In this document: positions 2,180-54,577 of the stretch, piece by piece | How positions within the stretch are numbered: position 1 is the first letter of the stretch | How the letters are laid out: every line of letters begins with the position of its first letter | NCBI GenBank assembly: GCA_000934665.2 | Contig: KZ538254.1 | Span: 1 to 64,000, forward strand | Length of the DNA stretch: 64,000 nucleotides | Direction of reading: 5' to 3' | Origin: Catajapyx aquilonaris | Taxonomy: Eukaryota | Made by a program: the position numbers and the translations under genes | Notes under the pieces: model-generated | Seen by the model: only the letters and a program-made list of their open reading frames with translations | Database searches by the model: none | Told to the model about the DNA's origin: nothing

Positions 2180-2254
2180 NNNNNNNNNNNNNNNNNNNNN
2201 NNNNNNNNNNNNNNNNNNNNNNNNNNNNNNNNNNNNNNNNNNNNNNNNNNNNNN
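2180..2254. other. Assembly gap (N run after poly-G); other N positions at 29715-29741, 53128-53130 and 63606
   Basis: N characters next to G homopolymers. Confidence 0.99.
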
Positions 2255-5550: not shown

Positions 5551-15309
<9,759 letters not shown>

Positions 15310-16783: not shown

Positions 16784-18904
16784 TCAACTGCAGTCACTCT
16801 CTGCATCGCTGAATTGGCCCTCCTCACACGCCACCTCTGCACCCACCGTATTGCACACCACAGCACTCTCACTCTTCCCTCGCTCATTCACTGAAATCAT
16901 ATCCCAGCCCAATGATTGTGATATACAAAGTGGAAACAATACAACTGGCAGTGCACCTTCCACCGCGGTACTCACACGTGGGATCGAAATCATCTTCTGA
17001 ATCCCACGCAGCTTCTGGCTCTGCTGCAGGACCTGATTCAATGCCTCGGTCAACACTACAGGACAATATTAACCACAATTACATTGTGAAGCTGCTTTAC
17101 GCTTCATGCACCCAGCACTTGATGAACTTGCCTGAACTGATCTGATCTCTCCTCACTGCTGCATGACTCACTATCTTCTTCTCTCTCGTCCCCTGTAAAT
17201 GAAGGAATGGGTGGCATTGCAAAGGAAGAGCCTCATTATTGACATTCACACTGCCTACACCCACCTGACTCGTCTGATTCCACCGGCGGGACATCAATAC
17301 GCTCGCAGTCCCCAAGAGACTGGCGCAAGGCATCCCGCATCTCCTTGTACCTCTCAAAGTCCTCTGGCTCCACCTGAAAGTACAGCGCACATGACATGAC
17401 CCTTTGACTATAATATCTAACGAGCCTCCTCATTCCAAAGCAGGCATTGCCACTCACCGAATCCGGGCATTTGGTCAGGTCGACTTTGTTGCCTCCCATG
17501 TCAAAGGCCTTCATCCCAACCATTCGCACCATCTCCGTCTGGAATAAAGTGAGCTGGTTGTTGTGCAGATCCAAGTAGCACAATTTATCCATGTCCACCA
17601 TAGACTTTGGCATGCTGCTTATCTGAAAGCAAAAGCCAGAATTAATAAGTAACAACACTAGCAAAATACTCCTAATAACAGCATGAACACGAGGCTCATT
17701 TAAACACAGCAGGCACAGAGGAATGGGCACTCACCAAGTTGTTGCTCAGGTCAAGCCAGGTGAGCTGGGTCAGACCTTGCATGGCTTCAGGCAGGAAGAT
17801 GAGCTCATTGTCCCTCAGGCTGCACCACCTCAACTCCTTGGCCTTGCAAAAGGCGTCAGGAAGCATGGAAATGCAATTCCGGCTGAGGTCCAGCACCTCC
17901 AGGTGGGCCAGCTGAAGGAGCCAGTCCGAAATGCAGCCCAGGCCAACCCCAGGCATGTGGAGCTCCCTCAGGAGGGTCATGTTGGCAATCTCTGCGGGAA
18001 CCTCCACAATCACGTTCTGCAGGGATGTCCGCAGGCAGTCGCCATCGTTACCAATGTGCAAGACCTCCACAACAGAGTAACCTTCGCAGGCTTTCCATTT
18101 GGGCCAGTGGACCACCCCGCAGCTCTTCATTTCCAGATGCTTCAAGGAAATCCAACGTTTCATTAGGTCTCCAAAGTCAATCCGGAAGTCCAACCTGTTG
18201 TAGCTGAGGGCAGGGAATAAAACGATCCTCTTAGAAGATCACGGTACAGGCATTCCCCATTTTCATAGGAACACGAATAAATTGACCCAACTGGTATCAG
18301 CAAATATTGCTTCACATCCAAATGACAAACATGAAATTATTATTATTATTATTATAGATCATTATTATGCGGACCTGAGGACAAGCTTTCCGACCCTGCG
18401 CAGGTGAGAGAACCACCAGGGAAGAGTGCACAGCAGATTGGAGCTGAGGTCAAGGTGGCAGAGGGAGAGGCAGCTCTGGAAGTGGTCGGGTAGGGACGGG
18501 ATGGAGTTGTGGGAGGCGTCCAGACGGCAGAGGCCCTTGAGGCCGGAGAGGCAGTGGAGGGTGGTCAGCTGGTTGCGCGAGACGTCCAGGGCCTTGAGGG
18601 AAGGCATGGCGGCAATGGCTTCTTCTGGCAGTGCAGCCAGGCCGCGGCCGGACAGGTCCAGCTCCGTCAGGTTGGCATTGAGCAGGGCTTGGGGCACGGA
18701 GGGCGACGAGGGCACAGCTGCAGCTTGGGACTGGTCATCAGCATCAGGTGGTGATGATGATGGCGGCTCACCACCCTGGCCACAATAAGGTCCACTCCCT
18801 GCTGAAATGTGTGCAGGTTATTGCGTTGAGAGCAGCCGAGGAAGAGCGTTTTTCATGGCGCAGCTCGTCTTACACCCACCTGCTGCAGGAGGGACCCGAA
18901 CCAT
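16784..18904 (-). CDS. Leucine-rich repeat protein, about 480 aa, with acidic C-terminal tail; 8 coding exons
   Basis: Exons 18904-18880, 18801-18375, 18203-17735, 17622-17458, 17373-17265, 17192-17132, 17055-16976 and 16890-16784; phases consistent, total 1443 nt. Repeated LxxLxLxxN motifs (LTELDLSGRGL, LKALDVSRNQL, LCRLDASHNSI, LCHLDLSSNLL, LEVLDLSRNCI, LTWLDLSNNL, LCYLDLHNNQL). Intron 17056-17131 is GC-AG. The first exon and start codon are less certain. Confidence 0.85.
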
Positions 18905-19923
18905 GATGTCCCCTTATGATTATTACACTCCCTGGACTGCCAGGACTGTAGTTGTTGTGGGATCCCTGCAGGTGTATGCCCTCCTCCTCCTCCTATCGCT
19001 CAACTAGGCAGCCGCGGTGTGTGGCTTCAATGGAGATCCTTTTGTCACAGGCATCCGACCGAGGATGAGGACGATTCGAGGAACAATAGGAACAATGGCC
19101 CGCCCGCCCCCCACGGCACATGCTGCTGTATCGACATTCGAGGGGAAACTACCACCATCGCTATCGTCATTACTACCGCAAGTGGTGATGGGATCGTTGC
19201 TTATTGGAACTTTTAGGCGGGGTGTACGCATTTTTTAAAAATTTCAAATTGATTCATTTCAACCATGCCGACTCTGCATGGCTCTACTGACGTGGATGTG
19301 GATTGTGCGTGGTTGGATTTAATCGCAAAAAAAAAGAGGAATAAACGACTCGTTACAGGATGAATAATTCCTAGGTAAGGCAAACTTGGGAGTCATTCAA
19401 ATAAAACATGACTTTTTTATTATTGTTACAATATAGTGTTTGTCCCCTTTTCTCTCTCCAATGATCCTTGTAAATCCTTCGGCCACTTGCTACTACTAGA
19501 CTCATGATGGCTCTCCATATGATGACAAAATAATGTGCCATACAACCGGAGGCTACATATCCATATAGCTAAGAAATCATCTGACAAGCCGGCAGTCTGC
19601 TCATTCTTATACTTGCATTAAATCAAGTGCACAGGTAATCGTGACAGTTTATTGGTCATGCGTTTCTTATCAAAATCGTAGGAATAATATTCGTCTCCTT
19701 ATGCAGGAGAGGAGCTGCACAAAAAAAAAAAAAACCTTCCTTCGATTCTTCTCTAATGCAAAATTCGCACTGCATGACATCAACAGTCGGATCTCAGTGC
19801 GCTGCCCTAATCACGTGGCAACAGTAGAGCTTGTAATTTAGAGAAATAGATGAAAATGGACAATCACTATTACTTTCCTGATGAAAGCTGGATATTTCAG
19901 GACAATATATATTATCATATTGT

Positions 19924-20254
19924 GGGGAGACGGAGTGGCGCCGCGGTAACGCGCGCGCCCACGGAAGTTAAGGTCCCGGGTTCAATCCCCACCCGGGGTT
20001 CCCACCTTCTTTCGTGCAGAGTTGGGCCATCTCTGGCTTCGTTTCGGGTGGCAATTTCCGGCAGACTAAGCCACCCGGGGGAGTTCACAAAATGACGATT
20101 AGAGACATTGCACTTGCACTTTGCACATCCCCTCCCACCCACCCTTGGAGCATACTAATTAAGATTCTTCTTAAACTCGCTCCAAAAACAATTCCAAAGG
20201 TGGCAACCCACCCCCCCTAAGGAGTAGTATAACTCCCCCCGTGGGGTAATGAAA

Positions 20255-20311
<57 letters not shown>
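19924..20311 (+). mobile_element. tRNA-derived SINE with a (TA)n tail and TSD
   Basis: A-box-like TGGCGCCGCGGT (19936-19947), B-box GGTTCAATCCC (19979-19989), core shared with 13188-13258, a 3' stem-loop, then (TA)n at about 20258-20319. Direct repeat ATATATATTATCATATT at 19905-19921 and 20312-20328. Confidence 0.82.
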
Positions 20312-20322
<11 letters not shown>

Positions 20323-20572
20323 CATATTTGTCAATGTCAAGATATTTGTACAGCAGTGCAACTGAGCAGTGCAGTGGAGTTTATGTATCCAGTGTTGCCA
20401 CGCACTGAACAGTAAAAAACAGTCGTAACAAATTATTCCACTTTCCTGTCACTTTTACGGACAAACAAATTATTGGATCTTGTGGTGCAAGCAAGCCTCG
20501 AGTGTATAATTATACTTTCACGAGTCCATCAGTATTGCAAAAATAAAGACAAGGAATAATAACATTGGTTAA

Positions 20573-20855
20573 CCCTGGAACCGCACCGTGCCTGAAAGTT
20601 ATGGCAACCGTACCGTGGGGTCTTTTTGGACCCCATCCATATATTTTTTTTTTAAAAAAAACTTAATACTTTTCAATGTATTGACTATAATATGCAATCA
20701 TTCTTTGAACTATGCCTAAAATGATAGCTAATTCAAAATAAACATGCACTTCCTGTTATACACTGTAAAAAAAAGGCAAAAGTTCACTGTAATCATCATT
20801 TTAATCCAGTTTAATTCCTTGGGGTCCAAAAGGACCCCACGGCACGGTTCCAGGG
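20573..20855. mobile_element. Complete piggyBac-type MITE (283 bp)
   Basis: TTAA|CCCTGGAACCGCACCGTG ... CACGGCACGGTTCCAGGG|TTAA, with TTAA at 20569-20572 and 20856-20859. Subterminal inverted palindromes GGGGTCTTTTTGGACCCC and GGGGTCCAAAAGGACCCC. Confidence 0.85.
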
Positions 20856-21170
20856 TTAATAATACAGATTCAAAAGATGATGGTGTATAATGAAGGACTA
20901 CTGCCTTTATTCCCCAAAGTAGAAAAGATGTGTAGGGCATGCTGACTTTTATACTTTCACCTGGTTTCACCAATGTCAATACAACAACATGTCAATGGAC
21001 AGTCTGGACGAGATATATGCCAATGAAGCTGAATGCTCATAACAAAGGGACGGCAAAATTAGGGGGTTGGGATCAGAATCTACAATAACATGTAGCTATT
21101 GCACTGCATGACTGGGTGGACGAATCTTCTTTCACCTCTCCTCGTGGTGGTGGTGGTCATGTAGCGATGC

Positions 21171-24100
21171 TCAATGCGGATCACTGCTGCCTGACTTATT
21201 GTCATTCTCTGTGGTACCAGAAGGACTGTTATCTCCATTTTCACGTGATGGTGCTGCTGGTGATGGATGATGCAAACTGGCAAATGCTTCTTTAAGCTCC
21301 TCCTGCAAGAGGTGGTGGCTGTGGGCCAGCTTGTCCCTGTCCTCCCCTGGAGGTGTGGTGCTGGGCCCCACCGCAGGAACCATCCCCTTTGCCTGCTGGC
21401 TCCCTAGTGACGGGTGACTGTCATAGCCAGGCATGTCTTCCGGAGAAGTGTCAGCAACAGAGCGAGCTTGGGGTCTCTGCGGCAGCCCTGACGTCGTTGC
21501 CCTCTGAGAGACACTGGCTGGCTGGCTCTGCTGAAGATCCTCCTCCCCTTGGAACCGGTCTGCTGATGAAGAGGCATCGTGCCATTCGATAGGGGAATTG
21601 TATTCTTCCCTCTGCAGAAGCGTTGGCCTTGCTTCCCGTTGCTGAAGATCCTCCTCCCCTTGGAACTGGCCGACTGATGAATAGGCATCGTGCCATTCAA
21701 TAGGGGAATGGTATTCTTCCCTCCGCAAAAGCGTTGGCCTTGCTTCCCGTTGCTGAAGATCCCCCTCCCTTTGGAACTGGTCGGCTGATGAAGAGGCATC
21801 GTGCCATTCGTCGATAGGGGAACGGTATTCTTGATCCCTCTCCAGAAGCGTTTGCCTTGGTTCCCGTTGGCCTGGGTGTCGGGCACTCCACCTCAAATTG
21901 TGCCTGACTAATTCTTCATCAAATAAATCCACCCTCCCGTGCCTGTGCCTCCTACCATTCCCTTCATGACTGTCATGACCGGGGTGGCTTTCCTTGACCT
22001 CTGCAGCCCCAGGGTCATCCTCACTGAGCTTCCCATAATCATACTGGCTAGCCCAGTCACTGTCATTCGCACTTCCATCAGATGGTCGTCTGGCATGATC
22101 ACGTCCGCTGCTCCTTCCATGAGCACCCTCACCTCCATGAGCACCCTCGCCTCCATGAGCACCCTCACCTCCATGAGCGTGCTCACCTCCATGAGCATGC
22201 TCACCTCCATGAGAAACATCTTGTTTCTTGGATCCATTGGTGGTTCCTGCATGATTCACTCCGACTCCCTCATTCCTTCGTCCAACATTAGCAATGTGTC
22301 TTTCCAATCTTTCAACGAGATCTCGAACCAGATTTTGACGAGAAATTTGCTGGCTGTCTTCCACTTTGTGCTGGCCGCTGCTTGCCTTGTGTTCATGCTC
22401 GGCGCTGCTTTCCTTATTGTGTTCATGCTCGCCGCTGCTTGCCTTGTGTTCATGGTGGCCGCTGCTTGCCTTCTGTTCATGCTCATGTCCAGCAGAGCTG
22501 TGATTCTCATCATCCTTGTGCATGGGATATTGGCCATCCTCCCCTAACCCTCGTCCGCCATAATCCCTTGCCCCCCTTCGTGGCACATCCTGCCTTCCTG
22601 TGCCACGATGCTGACCCCGTCGAGCCCCTCTTTTTCTCAACTCCAAATCACTCTCTCCACTGGATGCTGGACTAGACAGGCTACTTTGGCTACTCAAGCC
22701 ACTCCCGCCTTCTTCCTCGTCATGATGGGGTCTTCTGCTCCTGATTTGTCCACGCCTCCTCCTGAGATAGCGATTCGTTTTTGGATTAGATTCACTAGCG
22801 ATATGACTCGAAGTATTGCACTGAACGGAAGGACCTGCCTGGTTTTCATCATCCTTCTTGCCTGTCACATTTGGCTTAGTTCTCTGACTTGTCTGGCGGC
22901 TCTCTTCCCCACCATCTCCTTCTGGGTGACCCCTAGACCGCCTCTGCTTTTCACTTGCCTTCCTGTGCACTTCTCCACGACCAGAATCCACTCCTGCAGC
23001 ACTGCCTCTATCAGGACTGCTGTCATCCTTGGAGGAAGACTCCATCCCTGTCAACTTCGTGCCGCCTGACTTCCCCCTCTTCATCCTACGACTCCTGAGT
23101 TTCATGAGTGGATCATCTCCTAATGAATCCTTCCTGACGGTGCCACCTGAATGGCTTGTCTCTCCCTCAGTTTTCTTCTCCAACCTGTCACCCGCCTCGG
23201 GGGAAGACTCCATCCCACTTAGTATTGTGCCGCTTGATTTCCTCCTCTCCATCTGACGTCTCTTGAGTTCACTGAGCGGATCGTCATCTGGTGAATCCCT
23301 CCGGAATGTGCCATCTGAAGGGCTTTTCTCACCTTGGGTTTTCTTCTCCAACCTGTCACCTGCCTTTATAGGGGGAGACTCCATCCCTGTCGTACTGCTT
23401 GATTTCCTCCTCTTTATCCGACTACTCTTGAGTTCGCTGAATGGCTCATCTCCTGGTGAATCCCTCTGGGATATGTCAGACTCACTGGCAGAAGAGCTAC
23501 TAGTCCACAAAGTGTGACTGTGAGGACGACTCCGAGTCTGTACTTCACTTCTCTTCTTCGCGCTCTGTGTAGAAGGAATCTCTGTTGGCCTGGCGCTACG
23601 TGACTTTCCCAATTCCCTCAGATATTTGTGTCTTGATGCAACCCTCTGTTGTACGACGCCTTCATCGCTTGAGCTCGAAGAGAGATCATGAGACTGCCTG
23701 GTGAGATTCTCCCCATTGCTTTCCTCTTCTGGGAGCAATGCAGTCGTGCTTGAATTTTTCCTTCTTATGCGGCTAATTCTCCGGTGTTCCAGAGGCTCAT
23801 CATCTATTGAATCCTTCCGATCTGCAGAAGTGCCACTTGCCATGAAAGTGGGATCATGAGACCGCCGGACATGGCTTTCTTTGTGAGTCTCCTTCGGACT
23901 GCTGCTCTTCTTGGGTGAAGATTTAGGCTCTCTCGTCTCAACCTGACTTTTTGCCAGTTCACTCAAACGTTTGTCCCCTGATGAAGCCCTCCTAACATTG
24001 CTACTCATCTTCCATTGATTGATGAGGTCAGTGTCGCTATGCATCCCTTCATCCTCTATGCTCCTCAAGGCTTTGCCAGACCTTGACTTTGGGCTGCCAA

Positions 24101-27100
24101 TACCTCTTTCCAGCGGCTTCTTATCGTCACCTCTGCCTTCGCGCGACATGGATGCAGCCACCTCCTCCACTATTTGCCTTGCCTTCCCCAAGTTGAACAA
24201 GCACTCTGCTTCTTGCTTCCTGAGGTGGAGCAGAACCTGCCTTGCCAAGTGCACTTGGCTCTTGTCCTCTCCACTCAAGGGTCTGCCTGGCCTCAGCTTC
24301 TGCATGCGCTCTTCCAGGTCCTTCAGCCTCTTCTCCTCCTCAAATATGACACGTAGACAGTGCACCACGCTGCTGTCTTTGTTCACCAGGGCCTTCAAGC
24401 TCTCGTCTGATGGGGACGTTGCAGAGGACTCGAGACCTTCATACACAGGGTGAAGCACAACCTCGTCTCTGGCTTCATCTTCAGCCCCTAGCTCTCCTAA
24501 GCATTTGAGGATTTTCTCCTCTTGTATCCTTCGGGACACTCCTTCCGAGTGCATCAGCCTGTCTATTTCCGTCAGCCTCAAGAGGATGGAAGCCCTGCTC
24601 TCCTGCAGCTTGACCTCATCCTGGCCACCACCTCCACCACCACGATCGTATCGCAACTGGGCAATGCTGCCTTCCAGCACCCTCAGCCGACGCTCCTCCT
24701 CCTCCCTCAGCTGGGCCAGCTGCTCCTCCAGCGCCTTCAGCCTGTCTTCCTCCGACCCTTGCTGGAAGGCCTCTTCCTCCAGCCTGCTCTTCCTCCTCTC
24801 CTGCAGCCTCTGCAGCCTCTTCTCCTCGTCCTCCTTCAGCCTCCTCAGGCTCTCCTCCAGTATCCTCATGCGAGTCATCTCCGCTGTCTGGCCTCCCAAA
24901 CTCTCCATCTTCCTCAGGCACTCCTCCTCCTCCTGCTCCCTCCTCATCCTCTCCTCCTCCAGCCTGCTCAACCTCTCCTCTTCCTCTTCCTTGAACTTGT
25001 GAAGTCGCTCCTCCAGCCTGCTCAGGTGCTCCTCCTCCTCTTCCATCCTCCGCTTCTCCCTCTCCGCCAAGCTCTTCCGTACAAGCTGCTCCTCCTTCAG
25101 AAGCCTCTGCTCCTTCTCTTCCAGTTTCTTCCTGCGAGACTCCTGAAACATGTGGAGCTCCTCTTCCTCCTCCTGCCTCCGCCTCTCGTCATCCTCCTGA
25201 CTCAGCCTCCTCCGCTCCCCCTGGATCAGGGACAGCTCCTCTTCCTCCCGCATGCTCTTCCTCCTCCTCCTCCTCCTCCACTTCTCCTTCTCCAGCGTCA
25301 GGATGGAGTCCCTCGTCTCCAGCTTCTCAGACGGAGAGGAGGCCTCCAAGAGGGGGCCAGCTGCCCTGAAATTGTCATCCAGGCACTGGAGGATCCTCTG
25401 CTTCTGCTTCAGCTTGCTCAGGCGGTCCTCTTCCTCCGCAGCTGCCTCCAATTTTCTCAGGTTCTCACTCTCCAGCCTTCTAACGTACTCAGACTCCATC
25501 TCCAGCTTGAACAAGCGGTCCGCTTTGGTGCCTGTCTCAGTCTCACTGGGAGGATGAGGCGATTTCTCCTGCGCACTTAGCAATTGTCTTTGGCTTGGCT
25601 GCTCAACTGGGCTTTCGGACGCTTTATCTGACTTTTTAGACTTTTTCCTCTCGTCCAGTATTCTTAGTGAATCTACATGACCCAATGATTTGGAACCCTT
25701 GTACCGTCGTTGCCCTTCCGTTGGTGCCAGGGGTGCCTGAGACAACCACAGCTCTACATCCTCTTCATATCGCAGCTGGAGTCTGTCCAGCTCGGAAAGA
25801 CAAGCAGTGGTCGACAACAGTTTCTCAGAACCTTCTTCCAAGTCTCTTATTCGTCCTGGGCGGGGTGAGACTGGAGGAGTTATACCCCTGGAATGTAACA
25901 TGGTCAGGTGATGTCAGACATGTCCTGATATTCAGCAGTGATGAAAATAAGTAATATCAATTAATAAGCTGCAGTTAAATTGGAGACAGGAAACATATTT
26001 TAGCTGAAAAAGTAACGCGAAAGTTGACGGCAGTGAAACATTATTCTGCTTGCCCCATCACTTTTCCAGTTTTAGAAGAAAAAAAATAGCTTCCTGGAAT
26101 CTAGGTCTAAACACTTCAAAATCAGCACTGCTGAGCTCACTCTTCTTCCGAGAAATCGGATTCGTCTCCATACTCCAGAGGATTTTTGCAACTGGTGCAC
26201 ATGTTTTCCAGCTCCGTAAAGCATGGCCTGCAGTACACGACCTTGCAATACGGAACGGGGCAGATGAAGAACCCTTTCTCATCACTCGCTTCGCCTGCCG
26301 TGCCACACACCAAGCAGTACTGTTCGTCAGGCAGGAGTCGGCTCAGGCACCTCCCAACAATGGGGATCCTGCAACACAGAAAAATGAGGAAGCCGCATTT
26401 CTGGTGATCACGTCCGTATTCAGAGAGAGACATCTTAGAGAGAAGGCCGAGATCCTTACACCCAAATGACGGCATGCGTACCTCTGAAGACAGTGCCTGT
26501 TAATGACCTTGAAGGTGGGAGATGATGCTTCACCCTTGGTCCGCTCCCTGATCTTCCTGCGGGCATTTTTGAGGAAGCCAGACCTGGTGGCCAGGATCCG
26601 GTTGAGCAGCCAGGCCGCCCTGAGTTTCTTTGTCTCAGGGTAGTACCACCCGCAGATCAGGTGGCGCATCCTGAGTACGTAGGAGCCGAATATCACCATC
26701 ACAAAGCTAACCAGGAGGAGCAGGCCTGCAAAGGAGATGTCAAGCATGCAATAAGTGATAGGTAACCAAAGAGAACCATGCACATCACCTTGTTGCACAA
26801 CTTGTTACAATTTTTGCTGTATAGGTTTACCATTAAACACACAACTGGCCTTAAATCAAAGACAAACATAATTATTATAATAACTGATTAGCAGATAAGC
26901 CTAATTGATAAAGTCCCTTTCACATCCCCAACTATATACCAATGTGTGTCATCCTGGCAAGGTCTGGAGGCCGTGGTGCAGGAAGGCAAGGGGTCGTGTC
27001 CAGGACGACTGGAGTCCCCCTCAAAGGATCCATGGTCTTGATGATGCTCCTATACACATCGGCCAGAGCACCATGGCCTTCCACGTGGGTTGAAACTCGC

Positions 27101-29336
27101 CCAGGAGCTTAAAAGTCAAATTAGGATGAGGCTCAGCCTTTGAAAAGTCCCACAAAAAATTAATCTTATTATTTTACAGCTGGTGGCTGTAGGACAGCAA
27201 TCAGCTTCTTGGTAGTCTGCAATATAAGGAAAGTCCGCAACCTCATGGAACAATAAGTCATTTTTGGCCCAGCTCATGCGAGCTGCAGCGACCAATGATC
27301 ACCTTTTTTTTTTTTCTTCTTCCAATGCAGTGCATTCCTGCCCATAATGTCACTCACCCTCAATTTTGACTGTGTAGTGACCATGTGCCTTCATCATTTC
27401 CAGAAGCCAGAAGAGGGTGTAATCTGTGGCCAGGTAAAAGCTAACTTGGACCACGCTCAGGAGCAACATGAACATCCCAAAGGCCAACGACTTTCTCTCC
27501 TTCCTCACCATTCGAAGAGAAGAGTTCTGTGAAAGGAAAAGGACGAGGTCGAGTGAGGGGGGCAAGGAAGCCATGAAAAGTACGCAGCTCCGTGCTTCAG
27601 CTCCCCCAATCGCATTACCCGAATGTACTTCTTCTTTTCCCACTTCCTGAGGGGAAGCACGGATTCTTTCCCCTTATACTTCAGCTGCAGGTCCATCTCG
27701 AGAAGCTCCTCTGACAGGTAGTAGTTGTCAAACTCGTTGCGTGCAATGTACTTCCTCCGATACACAATGGCCCTAATAAATATTGCAAGTCCAACCAGGA
27801 GACATACATGCAACATAGTGCGTTGAAAATACTCACTTGAGAAAAACCATAAGGAAGAGGACGGCAAGAGCACTGTTGATGAGGTCAAAAACCATGGATA
27901 TGTCCTTAACCTTTTCGTGGATCTCATCCATAATGTCTTCCTGCACTTCCTCGTAGGTTTTATTCTGGGTCACATTGTGCGAACTGACGTGCTTGAAGTG
28001 AAGCTGCATGTCAAACACCGACTTGGTGTATTCCACATAATGCTGGATGCCTAAGAAGACCCCCAGTAAGATGCATGCATAACCAACCCAAGCTTAATGT
28101 GATGGTCCCACTGCCTGCTGAAGGACTTACTCTCTCTAATGATTCCGACTATTTTGCTCTTGAGGAAGGAGGGTAAGGTGCAGAAGAAGTCGAGGACCTT
28201 GGCTACCTGGCAGACCTCCCTGACTACTTTCACTGCCAGGCACACGGTGCCCACCACGGGGCCCAGCTTCTTCTTGCAGTCGTCAAGCGCCGGCTGGAAA
28301 GAATTCCAACACCTGTGGTATGGCGTCCCCATGTCCTCATTGCACACGTCCACAACTCCACGCAGCCAGCCAAACGCACTCTCAATCGCATCGGCTGCAA
28401 CGAATGGGCCCGCTCCACACTTTAGAAATGGCCCAGTTGTTGGAGATGCCACCTCATCAGTGGCATATGCAACTGTGATGCGAACAGCTGGATTGAAAAT
28501 CATGGAGCATAACATACCGACTCTCTGAACTTGGGATTTGAGGTTTGCCAGGCGCTCTTGAAGCTTCCTGGCAATGTCATTCAGCTCGCTCTCCAGGTTT
28601 CTGAGCATGTCCTTCATGTTGGCAAGGGGAGCCTTTGCCGCCTGGACCAGGGCGTCCTTTGACTGGGCCAGTACCTGCTGGGTGCACGAGAGGGTTGACG
28701 TCAGGACCTCTGTGTTGTGGAGAACGTTCTTGGCTGGCCCAGACAACACCAGGATGAAAATGTAGGCCAGCAGGATTGCCCGTCCTTTGCCTGTGCAGAA
28801 CTGTGGGAAGGCCAGCAGGAAGATGCACCTGAGGCTGCTGGAGAAGGCCAGGCCAAGGGTCAGGAAGAGGCCCACTCCAGAGCACGCCATGGAAGCCGAC
28901 GTCGAGAGGATTCCCAACTCCAGCACCAAGAAGACGTAAAAAACCAATGTGATCAAGGCGCCAACTGGAAATTCCAAAGAGCATGACAAGGTTTGCTTGC
29001 ACCCCATTTCCCATTTCCAGGACACGACTAGTTCCCTGCACTCACACAAGAATCCCATGAAGGTTGTCAGAAAGTAGAGTCCCCATGCCGATGTGTCCAG
29101 AAAGTAACTCACGCATCGGAGGCTCTTGACTTTCGACGCCAGGTATTTCACACTCCTGATCGCAAATTAATACCTCAAACAACGCAATTATTGCACCATG
29201 ACAGGGTTGGTTACCTTCGACACCATGATTGATCACGTTCCTTCCGTTTAGAATATGCAGCTGCCTTGGCTTCTAGCAGCTTGGGGAATTTCCATCTGAA
29301 GATAAGGAGCCGCCACAGTGAAGACAACAGTGACAT
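21171..29336 (-). CDS. DCST2: DC-STAMP domain-containing protein (DCST2/SPE-42/sneaky family) with C4C4 RING and a ~1570-aa C-terminal extension; about 2278 aa in the long form
   Basis: Exons 29336-29215, 29155-29046, 28964-28518, 28394-28131, 28050-27837, 27772-27619, 27526-27358, 27107-26940, 26725-26482, 26368-26141 and 25887-21171; phases consistent, total 6837 nt. Family motifs RCIFLLAFPQFCTGKGR, LSGPAKN, CNEDMGTPYHRC, YIARNEFDNYY, VLPLRKWE, CLPAPRPPD, LRMRHLICGWYYP, and RING CLVC..CPVPYC..YCRPC..CTSC followed by PLEYGDESDFSEE. The core family call is strong; joining of the last exon and DCST2 versus DCST1 are inferences. Confidence 0.8.
21527..21870 (-). repeat. Coding tandem repeat, 3 x 111 bp (37 aa: QQREARPTLLxREEYxSPIEWHDAxSSxxxFQGEEDL)
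   Basis: gctgaagatc recurs at 21530, 21641 and 21752, exactly 111 bp apart. Confidence 0.9.
22117..22490 (-). repeat. His-rich coding repeats: (HGGE[H/G]A)x5 and HEHKASSG-like x4
   Basis: 18-bp units (ctccatgagc...) at about 22117-22211, and HEHEQKASSGHHEHKASSGEHEHNKESSAEHEHKASSGQH at about 22368-22490. Confidence 0.88.
23030..23470 (-). repeat. Coding tandem repeat of about 55-56 aa (2.6 copies, plus a diverged copy at about 23740-23825)
   Basis: RDSPGDEPFSELK..RRKSS..GMES..AGDRLEKKT / RDSPDDDPLSELK..RRKSS..GMES..AGDRLEKKT / KDSLGDDPLMKL..RGKSG..GMES. Confidence 0.85.
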
Positions 29337-30816
29337 CTCGACCAACGAGCATTGCAGCCAGGTGCGTTCAAGGATATTTTTCACTGTTGACAATCTCGTA
29401 ACGATGGAAACGCTCCTTCAGGAATAAACTCCCTTGCAGGGACTTCCCTGCAACGAGGAACAGACATTCTGGCGATGCCTCTTCGGCATGCAGTCGCCCC
29501 ATCGCCAAACCCTTTCCAACGCATTGGGTACCACCGAGAGACCTCAAATCATAACAACATTCCTGTCTTAGCTCCATTACCATTTTTTCTCTCTCTCTCT
29601 CTTTCTCTTTTTATTTCTTACAAGCATGTACATTACAAGATAAAGGGAGACTAAAATCCAACTGCAATCACCATGATTCATTAATTTATGCTTGGGGGGG
29701 GGGGGGGGGGGGGGNNNNNNNNNNNNNNNNNNNNNNNNNNNGGGGGGGGGGAGGGGTCAATGAGGAGGCTTTTGTTTGTCATCATCTGGCATATTGGGGG
29801 GTGGCCCACATGATTACCTCCTGGCCATGAAAATGGTCAAAAACCAGTCGAAAGCGACTAACCTTTCACTTGGTGTAAATGGAGGGGAGACTACGAATAA
29901 CCATTAGAGCGCCATCATTCTCGTGAGTGACAATAATTACTGTGAGTAACAATACATAAATGGGGGAGGGGGAAAGAAATATTGACCATTACTTTGAGTA
30001 TTAACAATGTTACCGTCTCTCTCTCTCGTCAAGTGCAAACAATTAGAATTGATTGGATCCCTCCGAACTGCTCTCCTCTTCTTTTTTTTTTTTTTCATAT
30101 ATATAAAAGGTGACCCCTGTCATATCTTTCTATTATGTACAAACTCCCATCTCACCCTGGGGGGTAAAGTAATGAGGGGAAATAACTGCGTAACAGAGGG
30201 AAAACGCCAGCCACTCACTACTCCCCTGCACTTTATGTCACGAACGTCCATCTGGTAACAACATTGATAGTAGCGACTGAAGAGGAGGGGGGGAGCGCCC
30301 TCATCTCATATTATAATAAATGTGATGTGAAAATTGGGACCTATGTATAAAATAATAATTATTATTAGCCCTTCCACTAAGCAGCAACCAAAGGAAGGAG
30401 GGGACAAGCTTGGGTTGGGGGGGGGAGACATGTTTTTTCCATCACGTTTCCTCCTCTCTTCTACATTTTTATACCAAAAGAAGGCAAAGGCCGAAGACAC
30501 TGCTGGACTCTCGTGCACATACTAGCATACTCACACATGCTCTGGATACGCATTTACTCTCACACTCGTAGCAATTGGCCTACACTGAGATGGAGATGGG
30601 AGGGAAGGGGGGAAAGTGTCGTAGGAGGTTCAAAGAGGACCGACAAACTGAAGAGGCAAAAGGGTGGTGAGGTGGGGGGGCACAGACGATGCCCAAGTCT
30701 CTTCCAGCCATACGTGATGTCCCTCCACACGTATTCACACACTACAGCACAGTGGAAAATGGAAACCAGAAACAGGAACAAAAACAGCAGGCAGAAGCTG
30801 TCCTCTCTTCCAGTGC

Positions 30817-33800
30817 TTACGAAAGCAGGTCTGGAAATACAATCAATTCATTAGCATCCACGATCAGGAGGGCTTGCAGGTGCGGTTAAACTACCTGTGA
30901 CGACTGCCGTGTCCTTGTTAGGCGGCGGCCCATTGGTGGAGACGTTGAAATTGACATTGTCCTCGTTGACCATCTTTGTCTGGGCCTCTGAGGAGGAGAA
31001 GGGGTTGGGAGCCGGGGAAGGGACCATGGGGGGCTGCGGATGGCCCAGGGAAGAAGGGGTCACCCCGATGTCCAGGAGCATTGGGGGAGGTGAGCCTCCC
31101 TCCTCCCCAACGGCCGGCTGCTGCTGGTTGCTGTTCCCATTGAGCCCTCCCAGGTCGGCCATCAGGTCCAGCAAGGCACCGCCTCCACCCCCTCCCACCG
31201 TCTGGCCAACACACGCCTTGCTCCCCTTCCTGCAAACACAACACAACAACGTCAACAACCATCGCGAACAGGCAAAAAAAGGCTGTGTGTGTTGCTCAGC
31301 CTTTTTCAAGTAAAGCTGTCTCACACACTCTGGGTGACCCAAGTGATCCCTCAATTGTCACACTTGCTGTGATATTGCTGCAATAGTCATGCCACTTTCC
31401 ACACCAGTAACACTGCCGTCATCTACAGCTTACAGGCAAGTGAATCCAATTTTTTGACGTGACAAAAAGGAACAAACCGCTGACACCTGAGTTGAAGGAA
31501 ATGGAAATTTTGCCTGGACTTAACACTTTCTCCCCCAGCCTCTCCCTCATACTTCTTGGATTACATTTCAGCGTATGACAAATTGAACACTGCCACACCT
31601 AATTGACTTGTGTGGTTGAATTCCGCATGCCAGCCAGTCCTGTTGGTCACACAGGCCCTTCTAATCTGAGCCTTTTCCAACCCTGAGGAGGTACACTACT
31701 GATGAGCATGCATTCACTTCTCCACAAGCATATGGTCACACCTTGGGTGTTCTGAAATACTTGCTAACCCTCAAGGCTCCTCTGCAGGAGCAACCCTTCC
31801 ATGCTTCAAGTCCTAAATACACCCTGACAACAACTGCTGCTGCTGCTTTATTCCACTATTCTATCACCAAATAATCAATCTACAACAAGTCCTCCTCCAG
31901 GTCTGCAAGAGTCTCTCTCTCTTAAGCACACCTTCACATCTCTAGGCACCAGTTGCTAACCACCCTTCTAATGCTAATTCCTTCCTGCAACTGTGGTCAG
32001 TCACCTACAATCTACAGGGAAAAACAGCGAGGGGAAGAGAATGATAAGAGGCAGAGAGGCCTGCCAAGTGAGGGGTGTCCTTCCTTGTCTGCCTTCCCCC
32101 TCCCCTTCACAACAATCACTCTGCTTCAAACCCGCCTGCTACAACATGTGGGTGTTGGTCACCCCGCAGAAGTGAATAAATTCTGAAATAATCAACAGAA
32201 ATATTTAACATTCTTTGTCACATTGATTTATGGAACTAACATAAATTCAGCTAACTTTAAATGTCTGCCTGGCCTGTTCATACTATTAAAAATCATCATG
32301 GAAACTACACCAAGGGCAAATCTCAGCTCATTTTAAATTAAAACTGCAATTTTCACCGGAGCAGAAACTTTTTCCAGGCTTGATTTGCAAGGGGGTAATT
32401 TGAATTTCAAGTTTCTCCTACTCATGTAAGATGAAAAAGTGAAACCACCTGTTTTTTAAAAATATTTGATCTCTGAACAGTGAATACCTGTGCTGGAAAC
32501 TTGTGAATTTGCAAATTTTTTAGCCCTTGAAATGGCCTCAGGAGGTGCTAGGAAACCTTCCAAAAATCTTGATTCTAATTATATAATGAACAATGGGAGG
32601 CGATTGCAAATTTTTTTGAAGATCACATTGTTCACACGAACAATAACTTTAATAATGAACGAGATCCTTGCGGGATGCTGTAACAAAAAGCAATTCTTGG
32701 CAAGCAGGTCTCCTTCTTTCATGGTATGGAAGTGGGGGAAGGTGGGTTGTCTCCACAGTTCTGGCAAGGCCAACCCCCCAATACACGATACACCAGGTTC
32801 AGCGCAACATAGTCTTTGCTTGAAATAAGTGGCGGTGAGTGGCCATTGATGCAGACAACAACACGGATTACAACTAGGCTGCTGCTGCCTCTACATGACT
32901 GGTGTGTACTGTGGGCATCCACTACTCTGGTGACTGCTACTGTATGCACTTGGGTGTCTGCAGTTAAACAAGTTGCACAGAGGAGGAGGAGGCTAATGAA
33001 ATTGAAAATAAAAGTTGGTGCGAGTCTGTGGAGAGAGTGTGTTGGGCACATCCAAACTTACATCACAGCTGGTAGAAGGGCCCCGAGATGAAGCTGTGTG
33101 ATGTAGGAGGCAGCGAGGATGGAAGGGGAAGAGAGAGGCAGAGATGGAGAGAGAGAAAAGTAGCAAGAAAACAGTTTCAGCATGAGGATACCAGAGCACA
33201 GCCTCGCAAACACTCAAATTGGATTTAGCTGCGCACACACGCAGAACAAAACTAACGAGGGAGGAACCAGAGGTGGTGTTTCACATTCCCATCAAGCTAG
33301 CGTAACAGGTCAATTTGGAGGCCAGGAAGCCCACTGCTAAGCTGTGCACTCAACACGCAGAAGAACAACTCTTCCCATTACGATGTTTAGCTAACTTGAC
33401 CTCAACGACAAATGAGAAATTTGAATGACTTGTATGTACAACAACTGCCTCCATGTCAACCACAGTGCCAGTGGCATGCAAATCTACCGGGGCAAATAAG
33501 GTTGTCCCTCCCTCCCTAGCCTTGCTTGAGGATGTTCAGGTACGTACTTTCAAAGCACACAACAAGAAACCAATCACATTAGGAGAGAAATGCTGTATGA
33601 GGCCTTCTCACTCCCTCTACCACCACATTGTGTCAGCAGTAACTTTGAACCATTTTAACGTAAGAGGGGAGCAGGAAAGTAATCAGGTCTCTTCCATTAA
33701 AACATATCTGCTGTGGTTAAACCTCATGCCGTCTGCGAGAGATTAGTTGGTGAGCAAGGGGGTGAGAAGCGCACAAATTCATCCAGCCAAGAGAGGTCCA

Positions 33801-36800
33801 GGAGTTGAAAGAATGTAATGGCAACAGAAAAGTGAGGGGAAAAGGGCATACGCTGCAGCCACCTGTGCGCGCAACAACCGTATTCCACCTTGTGTCTGTT
33901 GGCAGGGGAGTTAGTTAGTGACTGGGTGTGAATGGGTTCGTGCAGAGTGAGGTTACCAGCCAAAGGCAAGATGGACTCACGTGGTGGCATCTGAATTGTC
34001 CAGGAACAAATTCTGCTGCCCCCTGTTGTTGACCTCCTGCACTTGGTGGTGGTGGTGGTGGTGGCCGTTCCTCTGCGAGGGGGGCAGGGAAGACAGGTCC
34101 AGGAGGAGGTCCCCACTCCCCCCTCCTCCAACCACTCCCCCCTCCATCAGCACTGACACTCCCTCCCCACCAACACCACCCGCACTGTCACCCATCACAA
34201 TGTCCTCCCCTTGGTCCATGGGGCCACCACTGCCCCTCCCTCCAGAGTCACCTTCTTCCGAGCTGCTGCTCCCTCCACCACCCATTTCCTTGCTGCTTCC
34301 TCCATCCTCGTTACTCTCCTGGAACACACACATGCAATTAAAACTACGCTTAAGCACAGTCATGAGAATTATGACAACACAACTGCCTGATAGTGAACAT
34401 GGACTAGAGAAGTGTGAATCTTGCCATAATTATTAAGAGGTCCATGTCAACAGCCATTTCTTTCTCATTTTCTTTGTTTTTTTCGCAACAAGAAAAAAAT
34501 GCTTCACATAATCACAACTATTTGGCCTCATGCAACATGAGGTCAGATTTTTTAAGTGGCAGGAAGTGACATAATCCATCCATACACCAAGTCACCAGAT
34601 AAGAAAACAACCAAATTTTAGCACCTTTTTTTGCCACTTCCATCATTATCTGTGACGGCCCTGTCCCATTAGGTTTTTTAAAAATAACTTGGGTGTATCT
34701 TACAACTTATCCCCGCTCTATCACTTATTCGTAAGTTCATTTCAAGAATACCACCACTAGGGGCAGTTGCTACCTTGGCAGGAGTGGTGCTGGGAGGGCT
34801 CCGTCCTCCATCTCCTCCTCCGGCAGTCTCCTCATCTCCGGACGTCCCTTCCCCAGGCGTGGTGGCCCCGCCCCCACCTCCGCTGCCTCCTCCCCCGCCC
34901 CCGCTTCCCCCGGCACCCCCCTTCCCGGCCCTGGTCCTGAGCATGATGGCCTCGACCCTCTTCCTCCGCTGCTGCCTCTCCTCCTCCTCCCTGCGCAGCC
35001 TCTCCTCCATCTCCTTCCTCTGCCTCTCCTGCTCCTCCCTGGCCTTCCTCTCCTCCCTCTCTCGCTCCTCCCTCTCCTGCTGCTCCCTCTCCCTCTCCAG
35101 CCTCTCCTCCTCCTCCCGCCTCTCCCTCTCCTCAATGGCCAGCCTCAGACGCTCCTCCTCCTGCCTGCGGGCCTCTGCCTCCAGCCTCAGCTGCTCCTCC
35201 TCCCACCGCTGCGTCTCCTCCTCCTCCCTCCGTTCCCGCTCCTCCTCTTCCCTCTTGCGCTCCTCCTCCTCGCGCCTTCGCTCCTCCTCGCGCCGCTTCT
35301 CCTCTTCCCGTGCCAGCCTCCGCCTCTCAGCCAGGGCAGCCTTTGCCTCCTCCTCTGTCGTTATCCTTCCCCGCATGCTGGCTGTCACTGAAAACAAGCA
35401 TATTTATAACAATTGCCTCCTGCGTCAGACTCCCTCCAATCCATGCACAAGCTGCTACACAGTGCCACGGACACTCGAAAGAGAACACACGAGACATTTG
35501 ACGTTGAAAAAGCACCACAATGCAACGTCATATAACACAAGTGTGTTGCGTTACAAGAAGGCTACTTCAAATCATGATTTCTGCATAAAACAGGTCAATC
35601 CCACAACAACAGGCAAAATGCCAAGAAGTGTGTTGCCCACTTAGGCATTGCCTATTTCATCCTATTTATTGCCTGTACGACAGTGGCATTTAATGGTGCA
35701 AATTAAACAACTTGGGGCTCACTAATTTCAGGTTTCAACTAGCACGGTGGAATAGGGACTCTATTGTCGATATAATTCCTAATTTTTCTTGACGCAAATC
35801 GTGAAATGAGCCATACTTTTACACTACTGGTCTGCAATTCCTCCCTGGCCTGGCCAAATGCACGTGGGAAAAGTGAGCTTACTAAGTCCTTCTGTGTCCT
35901 CAGCTTCTGCATCATCACTGGTCTTCACTGCCTGCAGCAGATCCCCCTCTCCCTTGGCCTCCTCCTGCTGCACCCCCTCCTCCGACTTCTTTTCAGCCTT
36001 CTTCTCGTCTTCTACCGCAACCACCTCTGCCTCGTCTGCAGGAGCTGCTTTTGCTGAAGGCGACGGTGCAGTGGCCTCTGACTCCTCTCCTACTTCCGCC
36101 CCATCCGACGCCACAGGGGGAGGTGGTGGTGGAGATGAAGATGGTACCAGTGCCTTCTCCCCTGCTGGAGACTGGAGTGGAGTGACTTTCGGGGTTGCCT
36201 TTGGAGTGGCCCTTGGGGTTGCTCGAGGAGTCACCCGGGGAGTTGCCTTGGCTGACGGAGGCTAAGAGAAACAAGATCAAATTACAACCCACCATACACC
36301 GAGTTACAAGTGCAGTTCTAATTGAAAATGCTTCTGATCTGCTCCCCGAGGTTTTCAATTCTTCAAATAGTGTTCTGGGTCACCTACAAGAATCGCCTGG
36401 GAGAATTAAACAGTCAATCTAGTGGCACTTTCTGGGATTCTGCCAGAACCCTACTGCATTTGATGATTTCCCCATAACGTGGCTCAATTACTGCCCAAAA
36501 ACAATGCTAATTTCAGTGCCACTGCTGGTTCTGTATGACGGCATTTGATCAAACCTTGGATGTTTTTGGGGTCCTATCTCCTGAAGCACCAACAGCACTG
36601 GCGGCGGCGGCAGCAGCAGCGGCAGGCTTCCTTTGAGAGAGGTCAGGCTTGTTCCCCGGCACTGGTGGCTTCTTGGGTGGCTTCCCAGCTGCAGACCCAG
36701 CAGCAGCAGTGGCGCCCTCCCTATCCCCACTTGACCCAGCACTGCGGGTGCGGTGCAAGGAGCCCTCCGATGCAGCACCACCACCTAAAGACGGGGCAGG

Positions 36801-52566: not shown

Positions 52567-54577
52567 TACATCTGCGTGCGTACAAGTACTGTAATCATCC
52601 GAGTGAAATCCAAGGACGAATATAAGCGGCGTCTAATCCAAGATGATCCCCACCACAGGAGAAAGAGCTACATTCCTTATTTACAGCAGGAAACCCATCA
52701 TATTCCAAAGTATAGTAAGGTGCAACACTCCCATGTATGGAGTGCCTCTGCATATATACTGGAGATTGCTGGGGGCACCCCCTGCAGCTATATGGCCAGG
52801 CTGATTCACAGCAGCCGATCCAGACGACAGCCGCTCGTTATTGCTAAGAGTGGGCTACCTGTCAATCACGACAGACTGTACATTTTTGGTCATTCGTGCC
52901 AGCCTCCGATTCCCCCCTCCTATGTACTCCTTCGAAACTACTCGAGTGATTGGGTAATTACGCCAAATATGGCGTCCGGACCGTCAGCTGGCGGCAGGAA
53001 TGCTGAAGACGGAGAAGGATGCAGCAACATTCCAAACAATCATTACGCAACGGCATCATTTCGCCAGGGCGAGACCCATTTGACAAGGACATGCCATAAG
53101 AAAAGGGGAGAAGGGGGGGGGGGGGGANNNGGGGGGGGAATATGCAGCCACACCTCGTCCCTTCTCCTCTCCGTTTATACCCTCAAAAATACAAGTATTA
53201 TTCAGCAAGTGTCCTTTACGCAACAATCCATGGACGGCGCCACAAAAGGTGTCCAATCAAAGCGCATTGGTCACACGTCTATACAGCAAGGTGCTGTCTC
53301 GCCTGACCGCAGTCACCGAACTACGTCATCGGGTCATGGACACCATTCATTCCAGCCAGTTTTCGCCTCTATAGTCACTCGCATCATGTATAAAGTCAAA
53401 TTCCCTCTGCCAATCTATTGGATCAAGTCCCCGGTGACCCTTGTTATACACATATCTGCAGGGTGTATATGATATTCCCACATTGTGATCCCATCCGTGC
53501 CATTTAAATGTCATCACCTGCTCTTTTCTCACGCGATTATTTCCCATCACTTTGGAAGGAGGCCTGGCGCTATTCCCCGATCCGGATTAATCAGACTCCA
53601 ACACTCTCCCTCCTCCTCGGTCAACAGCAGCTGCGTTGTTTCCCCTCATCTATGACCAGAAAGCGTGCTGGCCCTGCTGAGGCCAAAGGTCGTATATATC
53701 CCCACCCAAAATGACGACGTCGTGTCTCCATGTATATACCCGGGCATCGTGCAAATGTGGCACGGTCTGACATGACACACTGGGTTGGCCAACGAGTCAC
53801 GACTATATAGGACTCGGTGGCTTATTATTTGCAGCGTGTATATTGTTGTGGTGCAGGCTGTTGCTGGAAATGGTGTTGGCCACGTGGCCGCGTATACCTC
53901 ACCCACCCACCACATATCACACAGCAGGGGCCTTTATATTGCCCCTACCCACACCTGCCTGCCTCCAGTGTTATTGCATCACCTAAACAGGCCCCGACAT
54001 TCCCTGATTGCATCTAGAGCCGATTGGCCGATTAAACCCAACAACACACTCTACTGCCCCACACCTCATGGCCAATCTCTCTCCACTGATTTGCACGGTA
54101 CACGTCGGGGTTTTTTTTTTTTGCGCGCGTGTGTGTGGTGACATGGTACAATACCAGGGTGTCCTACTGTCCAAGTCCATATTCCCAGCAGGGGAGAGCT
54201 TGGGGTCAGCGCACCACCCGGCACAAATATGCATGGCGAGCAGCAGCCAGTCAGTCAGCTGGCGAAAGATGGTCCAGCAGATAACAACAACTGTGTGTAC
54301 GCAGCATCCCCCAGGGTTTTGAACCGTCAGCAGAAGAGAGGATGACGTACTGTACGTGTAACCGTGGCGATGGCTGCTCCAGTCGTGAATCGATTGGCCA
54401 ATCTAGCCTCCACATGCACCCAGAAATATTCTGCCCAAAAATTCGGTTGAAAATTCCACACAGGCTGTCCCCACCATGGATCCCGATTGGCCAGTTTCAC
54501 TCTTTTGAAAGGGAGGCACCCCACCTCTCTCTCTCTCTCTCTCTCTCCGTCCCTCCCCGACGCTGCATCATTCTCAC

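Follow-up and report, generated by a model that had tools for sequence, protein, structure and literature searches.

The 64,000-nucleotide stretch of Catajapyx aquilonaris DNA analysed here (assembly GCA_000934665.2, contig KZ538254.1, positions 1 to 64,000; hereafter the window) carries on its minus strand a giant open reading frame, which lies just downstream of a gene of the DC-STAMP/DCST family. On balance, the evidence leans modestly towards the giant frame being the last exon of this DCST2-like gene, probably joined to the exon encoding its RING finger by removal of a 253-nucleotide (nt) phase-2 intron. The initial annotation had proposed such a fusion of a DCST2-like protein with a giant tail. 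The family, the donor, the acceptor and the phase, together with circumstantial evidence for a single transcription unit, lend partial support to that proposal.

The proposed junction between the RING exon and the giant frame

Exon 7 of the DCST-like gene, which encodes the RING finger, ends ...TCGGAAGAAGA/GTGAGC on the minus strand, its last base being 26141. The acceptor side reads ...TTACATTCCAG/GGGTAT, with 25887 as the first exon base. The junction is in phase 2: exon 7 supplies two bases of the split codon and the giant exon the third. When the two are joined in silico, the frame is kept and an eight-exon model of 2,256 residues without a stop results. Reading of the sequence and the in silico join gave the donor after 26141, the acceptor at 25887, the matching phase, the 253-nt gap and the in-frame ATG at 25901 just as the initial annotation had described them, and its predicted junction peptide was also obtained on joining. 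Its account of the end of the RING exon, GAAGA/gtgagc, was right as to the donor and requires one correction: the codon that follows GAA GAG is TGA (26139-26137), so that, were the gap left unspliced, a usable stop would close the RING exon. The features around the junction are as follows.

26135 to 26140, minus strand: candidate donor GTGAGC, containing the in-frame stop TGA at 26139-26137
25888 to 26140, minus strand: 253-nt gap (intron 7 or intergenic spacer), 38% G+C, with competing acceptor-like sites inside
26003, minus strand: competing acceptor-like site ttactttttcag, pyrimidine fraction 0.75, giving the DCST protein plus 1 residue
25968, minus strand: competing acceptor-like site, pyrimidine fraction 0.70, giving the DCST protein plus 12 residues
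25924, minus strand: competing acceptor-like site, pyrimidine fraction 0.65, giving the DCST protein plus 33 residues
25899 to 25901, minus strand: in-frame ATG, context gACCATGt, four codons past the opening of the frame; the start codon if the tail is a separate gene
21174 to 25887, minus strand: giant exon, 1,571 codons after the acceptor ttccag/G, with the stop at 21173-21171
20906 to 20911, minus strand: first canonical AATAAA after the RING exon; the stop of the giant frame lies about 260 nt before it

Eleven AG sites in or just past the gap were tested as acceptors. A long extension is obtained only from 25887, the others adding 1-33 residues, and use of acceptors within the gap is likely to give short alternative isoforms alongside the fused form. 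Read-through of the stop in a retained gap is ruled out, as a further in-frame stop lies five codons on.

One gene or two

The length of the gap fits the larger introns of the DCST-like gene itself (250 and 214 nt), which favours a single transcription unit, and in G+C content it falls among the six established introns, which range from 35 to 55%. None of the 13 types of poly(A) hexamer tested occurs in the gap, neither AATAAA nor ATTAAA is found from 26137 to 21171, and the first AATAAA is that at 20911; the DCST transcript is thus without an evident end before the giant frame. The stop past exon 7 is not evidence of a terminal exon, because a phase-2 GTGAG donor always yields an in-frame TGA, as does that of exon 2 (CAA/gtgagt). 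A tail beyond the RING is in any case normal for DCST2, since frog DCST2 has about 130 charged residues past the end of its alignment with exon 7. Lastly, nearby gaps are kilobases (kb) long (18817 to 21171 and 29007 to 34681), beside which a 253-nt spacer would be an outlier; these lengths (2-5 kb) are distances between recognised coding open reading frames (ORFs) rather than between gene ends.

Several points weigh against the join. Searches of all the libraries used found no homologue of the tail, which leaves the join without comparative support, and the first part of the tail does not resemble the tail of frog DCST2. At 25901, 14 nt upstream of the acceptor, there is an in-frame ATG with A at -3, and the giant frame could therefore start on its own. 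The pyrimidine tract of the 25887 acceptor is modest (0.65) and the 26003 site (0.75) looks stronger, while agreement in phase alone is a 1-in-3 chance event. The ratio of non-synonymous to synonymous differences (pN/pS) between copies of the tail repeats is 0.42-1.49 in five pairs, which indicates weak or mixed constraint on the tail sequence and is not decisive.

These points bear on a second arrangement, possible and in our view rather doubtful, in which the giant frame would be a separate gene: an intronless orphan of about 1,575 residues starting at ATG 25901, with its promoter in the spacer or inside the DCST gene, the latter ending at TGA 26139-26137 with a product of about 685 residues. 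The ATG has C at -1 and -2 in addition to the A at -3, a stop codon stands directly after exon 7, and 685 residues fits the size of the family (851 for frog DCST2, 824 for limpet DCST1 and, in the passages of PMC8989947 drawn on here, 709 for zebrafish Dcst2). The tail is unlike the DCST tail with which it was compared, that of frog DCST2; TATA-like strings can be picked out by eye in the AT-rich spacer; and intronless multi-kilobase coding frames exist nearby, such as a 1242-codon ABCC frame. However, 253 nt would then have to hold both a promoter and a 3' end devoid of poly(A) hexamers, where neighbouring ORF gaps extend over kilobases. Two coincidences would also be needed, a GTGAG lying over a true stop and a phase-compatible CAG acceptor 14 nt past the ATG, and ATGs at about 25996 and 25921 would open short upstream frames if transcription began early in the spacer.

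In a third, operon-like arrangement, the two frames would share a primary transcript, a trans-spliced leader would be added at 25887 or at an upstream acceptor, and the tail would be translated separately from the next ATG. The frames have the same orientation and are tightly spaced, with acceptor-like sites in the spacer, and trans-splicing is conceivable in what appears to be an invertebrate-like metazoan, with ABCC matches of 35-50% identity at best. We consider this highly improbable nonetheless: the first methionine past 25887 is tail residue 130, which would leave 129 open codons unused, the upstream gene has no poly(A) hexamer in the gap, and neither a leader sequence nor any other sign of an operon was seen in the window.

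Coding character of the giant frame

Whether or not it is joined to the DCST-like gene, the giant frame has to be accounted for. Positions 21171-25913 of the minus strand form a single stop-to-stop frame of 1580 codons in the ORF listing (standard code). The span from acceptor base 25887 through the last stop-codon base, 21171, is 4,717 nt, so that the listing reproduces the stop-free length given in the initial annotation. In 500 mononucleotide shuffles of positions 21000-26136, the longest frame had a mean of 123 codons and a maximum of 254. Stops number 58 and 103 in the remaining sense frames of the same stretch and 43-45 in each of the three antisense frames. The coding strand is purine-rich, with 16% T; since the shuffles never exceeded 254 codons despite this T-poor strand, composition cannot account for the giant frame. 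Tandem Repeats Finder reported nine rows, all with a period divisible by 3 (111, 18, 27, 168, 33, 24, 3, 24 and 24 nt). In its choice of synonymous codons, the giant frame resembles the ABCC and DCST codons of the window: the correlation is r=0.74 in frame, compared with 0.66 and 0.30 for the two shifted frames and 0.65 for DCST against ABCC. From frame length relative to shuffles, stop counts, repeat periods and codon use, we conclude that the 1,571 codons make up a genuine coding exon, at present or until very recently.

The same observations make it quite improbable that the frame is untranslated, whether as the 3' untranslated region of the DCST gene or intergenic DNA kept open by purine-rich and repeat-rich composition, or as a recently dead gene. 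A T-poor strand does lengthen open frames generally, an antisense frame of 359 codons is present, the libraries searched hold no homologue of the tail, and constraint between repeat copies is weak. Composition-matched shuffles nevertheless fall far short of the observed length, the other sense frames are heavily interrupted, every repeat period is a multiple of 3 and in-frame codon use matches that of real genes in the window.

The antisense frame in question, at 24501-25580 of the plus strand, is Pro/Leu-rich and lies opposite the E/R-rich stretch of the tail; its openness is most simply put down to the purine richness of the coding strand, and we do not take it for a gene. In codon use, the tail and the reference genes are alike in strongly favouring AGG for arginine (relative synonymous codon usage about 3) and in favouring CTG for leucine (28132-29007, 5557-9279 and 21174-25886, minus strand).

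Searches with the tail returned no homologues. In a library of 5.8 billion clusters, none of 8000 scored candidates in the length range 864-2750 residues reached E<=0.001, and HMMER found no match at the same threshold for tail residues 1-1200 among 1.84 billion representatives. No Pfam family matched the whole frame at E<=0.1 or any of five segments at E<=10, no PDB sequence matched the tail at E<=0.1, and neither the whole tail nor residues 400-640 gave a usable match in the ESM Atlas. The same library searches did not return the window's own protein, and gene models of this genome are therefore evidently not in those libraries. The absence of tail homologues may in part reflect an under-sampled lineage; the ABCC neighbour itself finds nothing more than 50% identical.

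The upstream DCST-family gene

From its sequence, we conclude that the gene upstream of the giant frame is a new member of the DC-STAMP/DCST family. The family identity put forward in the initial annotation is upheld by Pfam DC_STAMP matches on three exon frames, by tblastn alignment to frog DCST2 and by eight invariant RING cysteines. The gene model has seven exons encoding about 685 residues, separated by GT-AG introns of 80, 64, 92, 250, 214 and 113 nt. Exon borders were placed where the reading frame switches between tblastn-collinear pieces, and splice sites were assessed by eye and by pyrimidine content.

28131 to 29007, minus strand: exon 1, first three hydrophobic segments and a large loop; donor AGA/gtaagt
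27837 to 28050, minus strand: exon 2, with the phase-2 donor CAA/gtgagt that itself creates an in-frame TGA
27619 to 27772, minus strand: exon 3, start of DC_STAMP; Pfam PF07782 at E 1.3e-08 on frame 27505-27969
27358 to 27526, minus strand: exon 4; PF07782 at E 1.1e-10 on frame 27353-27673
26940 to 27107, minus strand: exon 5, preceded by the 250-nt intron; tblastn match to frog DCST2 residues 507-564
26482 to 26725, minus strand: exon 6, last hydrophobic segment and end of DC_STAMP; PF07782 at E 3.3e-09 on frame 26346-26804
26141 to 26368, minus strand: exon 7, C4C4 RING-like finger, then an acidic terminus, ...SDFSEEE; tblastn match to frog DCST2 residues 620-721

The three DC_STAMP matches score 35.4, 42.1 and 37.3 bits, all above the gathering cut-off of 25 bits, and they cover successive positions of the 191-position profile (1-42, 39-95 and 150-190). 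A word-seeded search with a 371-codon exon frame found three proteins among 4912 candidates: two frog DCST2 proteins of 851 residues each (E 3.3e-17 and 1.1e-16, 26% and 24% identity) and a limpet DCST1 of 824 residues (E 5.3e-10). In tblastn comparisons with the window, these frog and limpet relatives align in six to seven collinear pieces from 28998 to 26140; exon 1 matches frog DCST2 residues 124-364 at E 9e-24. No PDB sequence matched exon 1 at E<=1. Alignment of exon 7 with the two frog DCST2 sequences and the limpet DCST1 sequence shows C18, C21, C36, C41, C46, C49, C57 and C60 to be invariant in all four. Six segments of the 685-residue body have a 19-residue Kyte-Doolittle mean of at least 1.6, by what is a crude method.

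Summed tblastn scores are about 292 bits for frog DCST2 and about 163 for limpet DCST1. The better frog scores suggest a DCST2 rather than a DCST1 identity, as judged from pairwise scores with three relatives, the comparators coming from different phyla. The locus at 26140-28998 is the sole DCST locus detected in the 64-kb window, where tblastn with limpet DCST1 and frog DCST2 revealed no second gene that could be the DCST1 partner.

The start codon of exon 1 at 29007 is tentative, as the frame is open to 29166 and contains a further ATG at 29058. The N-terminal cytoplasmic part of the protein appears to be short or incompletely modelled. About 700 nt before the tentative start, a C-rich stretch is broken by a run of Ns (29715-29741), and parts of the gene's 5' end may therefore be missing from the assembly.

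Composition, repeats and predicted structure of the tail

Composition in 100-residue windows divides the tail into a mixed N-terminal region of 200 residues, an E/R-rich region at 201-400 (about 30% Glu and 20% Arg), a more hydrophobic region at 401-600, a Ser/Arg/Asp/Lys-rich region at 601-1100 and a His/Gly-rich, repeat-rich end. The E/R/K-rich, Ser/Arg/Asp-rich and His-rich regions recognised in the initial annotation are thereby borne out. It had also counted three kinds of tandem repeat; repeats are indeed present, and there are at least four kinds, with units of 37 residues (three copies), 6 residues (5.4), 9 residues (4.2) and 56 residues (2.6). These repeats and the helical region discussed below are located as follows.

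24648 to 25526, minus strand: helical region, tail residues 121-413, with AlphaFold2 helices at 121-180, 190-329 and 335-413
23027 to 23466, minus strand: 168-nt (56-residue) repeats, 2.6 copies, each with an acidic DDPL-like and then a basic RRKSS-like stretch
22369 to 22484, minus strand: 27-nt (9-residue) His-rich repeats, 4.2 copies
22116 to 22213, minus strand: 18-nt (6-residue) Gly/His-rich repeats, 5.4 copies
21529 to 21869, minus strand: 111-nt (37-residue) repeats, 3.0 copies, 88% matches

A degenerate earlier copy of the 56-residue repeat begins near 23822. The tail contains 14 R-[RK]-x-[ST] sites, a pattern that we take to be the consensus of basophilic kinases such as PKA, and the two short His-rich repeats could, to judge from their composition, bind metal. 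The pN/pS values between repeat copies could fit a fast-evolving disordered region. No segment of the tail is hydrophobic, the maximum 19-residue Kyte-Doolittle mean being 0.83, as against the six hydrophobic segments of the body.

The initial annotation had pointed to a helical region in the tail, and AlphaFold2 predicts three long helices there. Predictions were made from the single sequence, with no alignment, and are accordingly weak evidence. The predicted local distance difference test (pLDDT) is mostly 85-95 over blocks of the three helices, and the predicted template-modelling score is 0.23, from which it follows that the helical region is not a compact fold. The predicted helix at 190-329 comprises 140 residues with a pLDDT of about 90-95; 63% of these are charged and 20% strongly hydrophobic. 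It contains 35 pairs of opposite charge at i/i+4 and no heptad signal, the periodicity power at 3.5 being 0.04. The rise of an alpha-helix is 0.15 nm per residue, so that 140 residues would span about 21 nm. The helix at 335-413 is predicted to be amphipathic (its periodicity peaks at 3.6), which might allow it to form a coiled coil with another helix. Residues 601-1571 are predicted to be disordered (mean pLDDT 38; 866 of 971 residues below 50), the exception being a confident helix near residues 1174-1206.

Comparison with known systems

In the passages of PMC8989947 drawn on here, DCST proteins are described as multi-pass proteins with an intracellular, non-canonical C-terminal RING, for which six invariant cysteines are cited, and mouse and zebrafish DCST1/2 as having five or six predicted helices. 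The present gene resembles the DCST2 group (vertebrate DCST2, Caenorhabditis elegans SPE-42 and Drosophila DCST2) in its DC_STAMP region, six hydrophobic segments and C4C4 RING cysteines, the identity to frog DCST2 being only 24-26%. Frog DCST2 likewise has a charged post-RING tail, whose sequence is unrelated to that of the giant tail. If fused, the 1,571-residue tail would be about 12 times longer than the frog tail, and the protein would have about 2,256 residues as compared with 709-851 in DCST2. The DCST1 group (E3 ubiquitin-protein ligase DCST1, Drosophila Sneaky and C. elegans SPE-49) has the same domain plan, and limpet DCST1 aligns over three exons. The limpet protein differs in having an N-terminal SH3 domain (Pfam), absent here, and in ending about 30 residues past the RING; its SH3 domain indicates that domain accretion is not unheard of in DCST proteins. 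Mouse Dcst1 and Dcst2 are adjacent according to the passages of PMC8055269 drawn on, whereas the 64-kb window has no adjacent DCST1 paralogue; adjacency is a trait of vertebrate synteny and not a strict requirement.

Two comparisons can be made for the helical region. ER/K single alpha-helix spacers occur in myosin VI, myosin X and caldesmon. The tail helix at 190-329 is predicted to be like them in its length, its 63% charge, its i/i+4 pairs and its want of hydrophobic periodicity, and it differs in being Arg-rich rather than Lys-rich and in having an amphipathic neighbour at 335-413. The charged helical domain of MAP7, a family represented in the window, has a similar E/R/K-rich composition. 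BLASTP of the tail against the MAP7-family frame nevertheless gave a best E of 0.61, and the tail did not match Pfam MAP7 at E<=10.

A literature search for C-terminal extensions of DCST proteins or disordered DC-STAMP proteins in sperm, within a coverage that left out subscription journals and supplements, found no report of a giant-tailed DCST. A 1,571-residue tail would be new for the family.

A model for a tailed DCST protein

If the giant frame is the last exon of the DCST-like gene, the product would consist of a six-pass DC-STAMP/RING body of about 685 residues and a tail of 1,571 residues, about 2,256 residues in all. The tail would lie in the cytoplasm, given that the RING end of the family is intracellular (PMC8989947, in the passages drawn on) and that the tail lacks a hydrophobic segment. 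Its start would form about 290 residues of long alpha-helix, in which a charged stretch of 140 residues of the ER/K single-helix type could act as a stiff spacer. This would be followed by about 1,000 residues of predicted disorder, with acidic-then-basic RRxS motifs and His-rich repeats, which might serve as a multivalent binding platform responsive to phosphorylation and possibly to metal. Spacer and platform together could tie the membrane DCST complex to sub-membrane structures of the sperm. Were the gap retained, or were splicing to use one of the other acceptors within it, the same gene would yield a DCST protein of ordinary, short length.

We infer the splice, expression in sperm and every function of the tail from sequence features. 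The idea of a sperm structural or fusion-regulating module, with the tail as a rod or scaffold, has the same standing. Taken as a whole, the model is speculative and, in our estimation, unlikely to hold in full: an animal lineage would have fused an orphan module of 1,571 residues, made up of a stiff charged helix of about 40 nm and a kilodalton-scale repeat array responsive to phosphorylation or metal, to the RING end of DCST2, thereby wiring a fusion/adhesion complex to the sperm interior, with alternative acceptors switching between tailed and tail-less forms.

To our knowledge, DCST2 is the most ancient component of the sperm fertilisation machinery. If the model is right, a large cytoplasmic effector domain would be seen here for the first time in a DCST protein, and it would give a handle on the role of the cytoplasmic RING side. 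A natural tailed variant would point to cytoplasmic partners of the RING end and offer a testable system. The passages drawn on from PMC8989947, PMC8055269, PMC8830517 and PMC13192892 say of this end only that it is an intracellular, non-canonical RING. As a separate gene, the frame would be a large, intronless, fast-evolving orphan beside a sperm gene, which is less remarkable.

Neighbouring features of the window

The window contains several other recognisable coding frames, all on the minus strand. At 5554-9279 is the uninterrupted ABCC frame, which encodes an MRP-type transporter with two ABC_membrane and two ABC_tran domains; its best PDB match is MRP1, and its library identities of only 35-50% are spread across arthropods, molluscs, amphioxus and fish. 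A single coding exon of 3.7 kb is unusual for the ABCC family, and could mean that the frame is a retrogene or that the lineage has few introns. The MAP7 (E-MAP-115) family frame is at 34681-35403 (Pfam E 4.5e-19), 9 kb upstream of the giant frame. Downstream of the giant frame, at 17239-18817, are three adjacent leucine-rich-repeat frames (LRR_8, up to E 6.8e-19).

No match from Rfam (gathering thresholds) or ARAGORN was obtained in the window, the stretch at 19920-20050 included. This G+C-rich stretch of the minus strand looks like the 3' half of a tRNA (the other strand being GGTTCGAATCC-like), and a short interspersed element derived from a tRNA is one possible origin. Four runs of Ns, totalling 106 bases, occur in the window (2180-2254, 29715-29741, 53128-53130 and 63606). 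Just past the AATAAA at 20911, at 20573-20866, lies an element resembling a miniature inverted-repeat transposable element, with 30-nt inverted arms (20606-20635 and 20820-20849) whose complementarity is 93%. The sequence at both of its outer ends is TTAACCCTGG, and these TTAA ends are suggestive of the piggyBac type.

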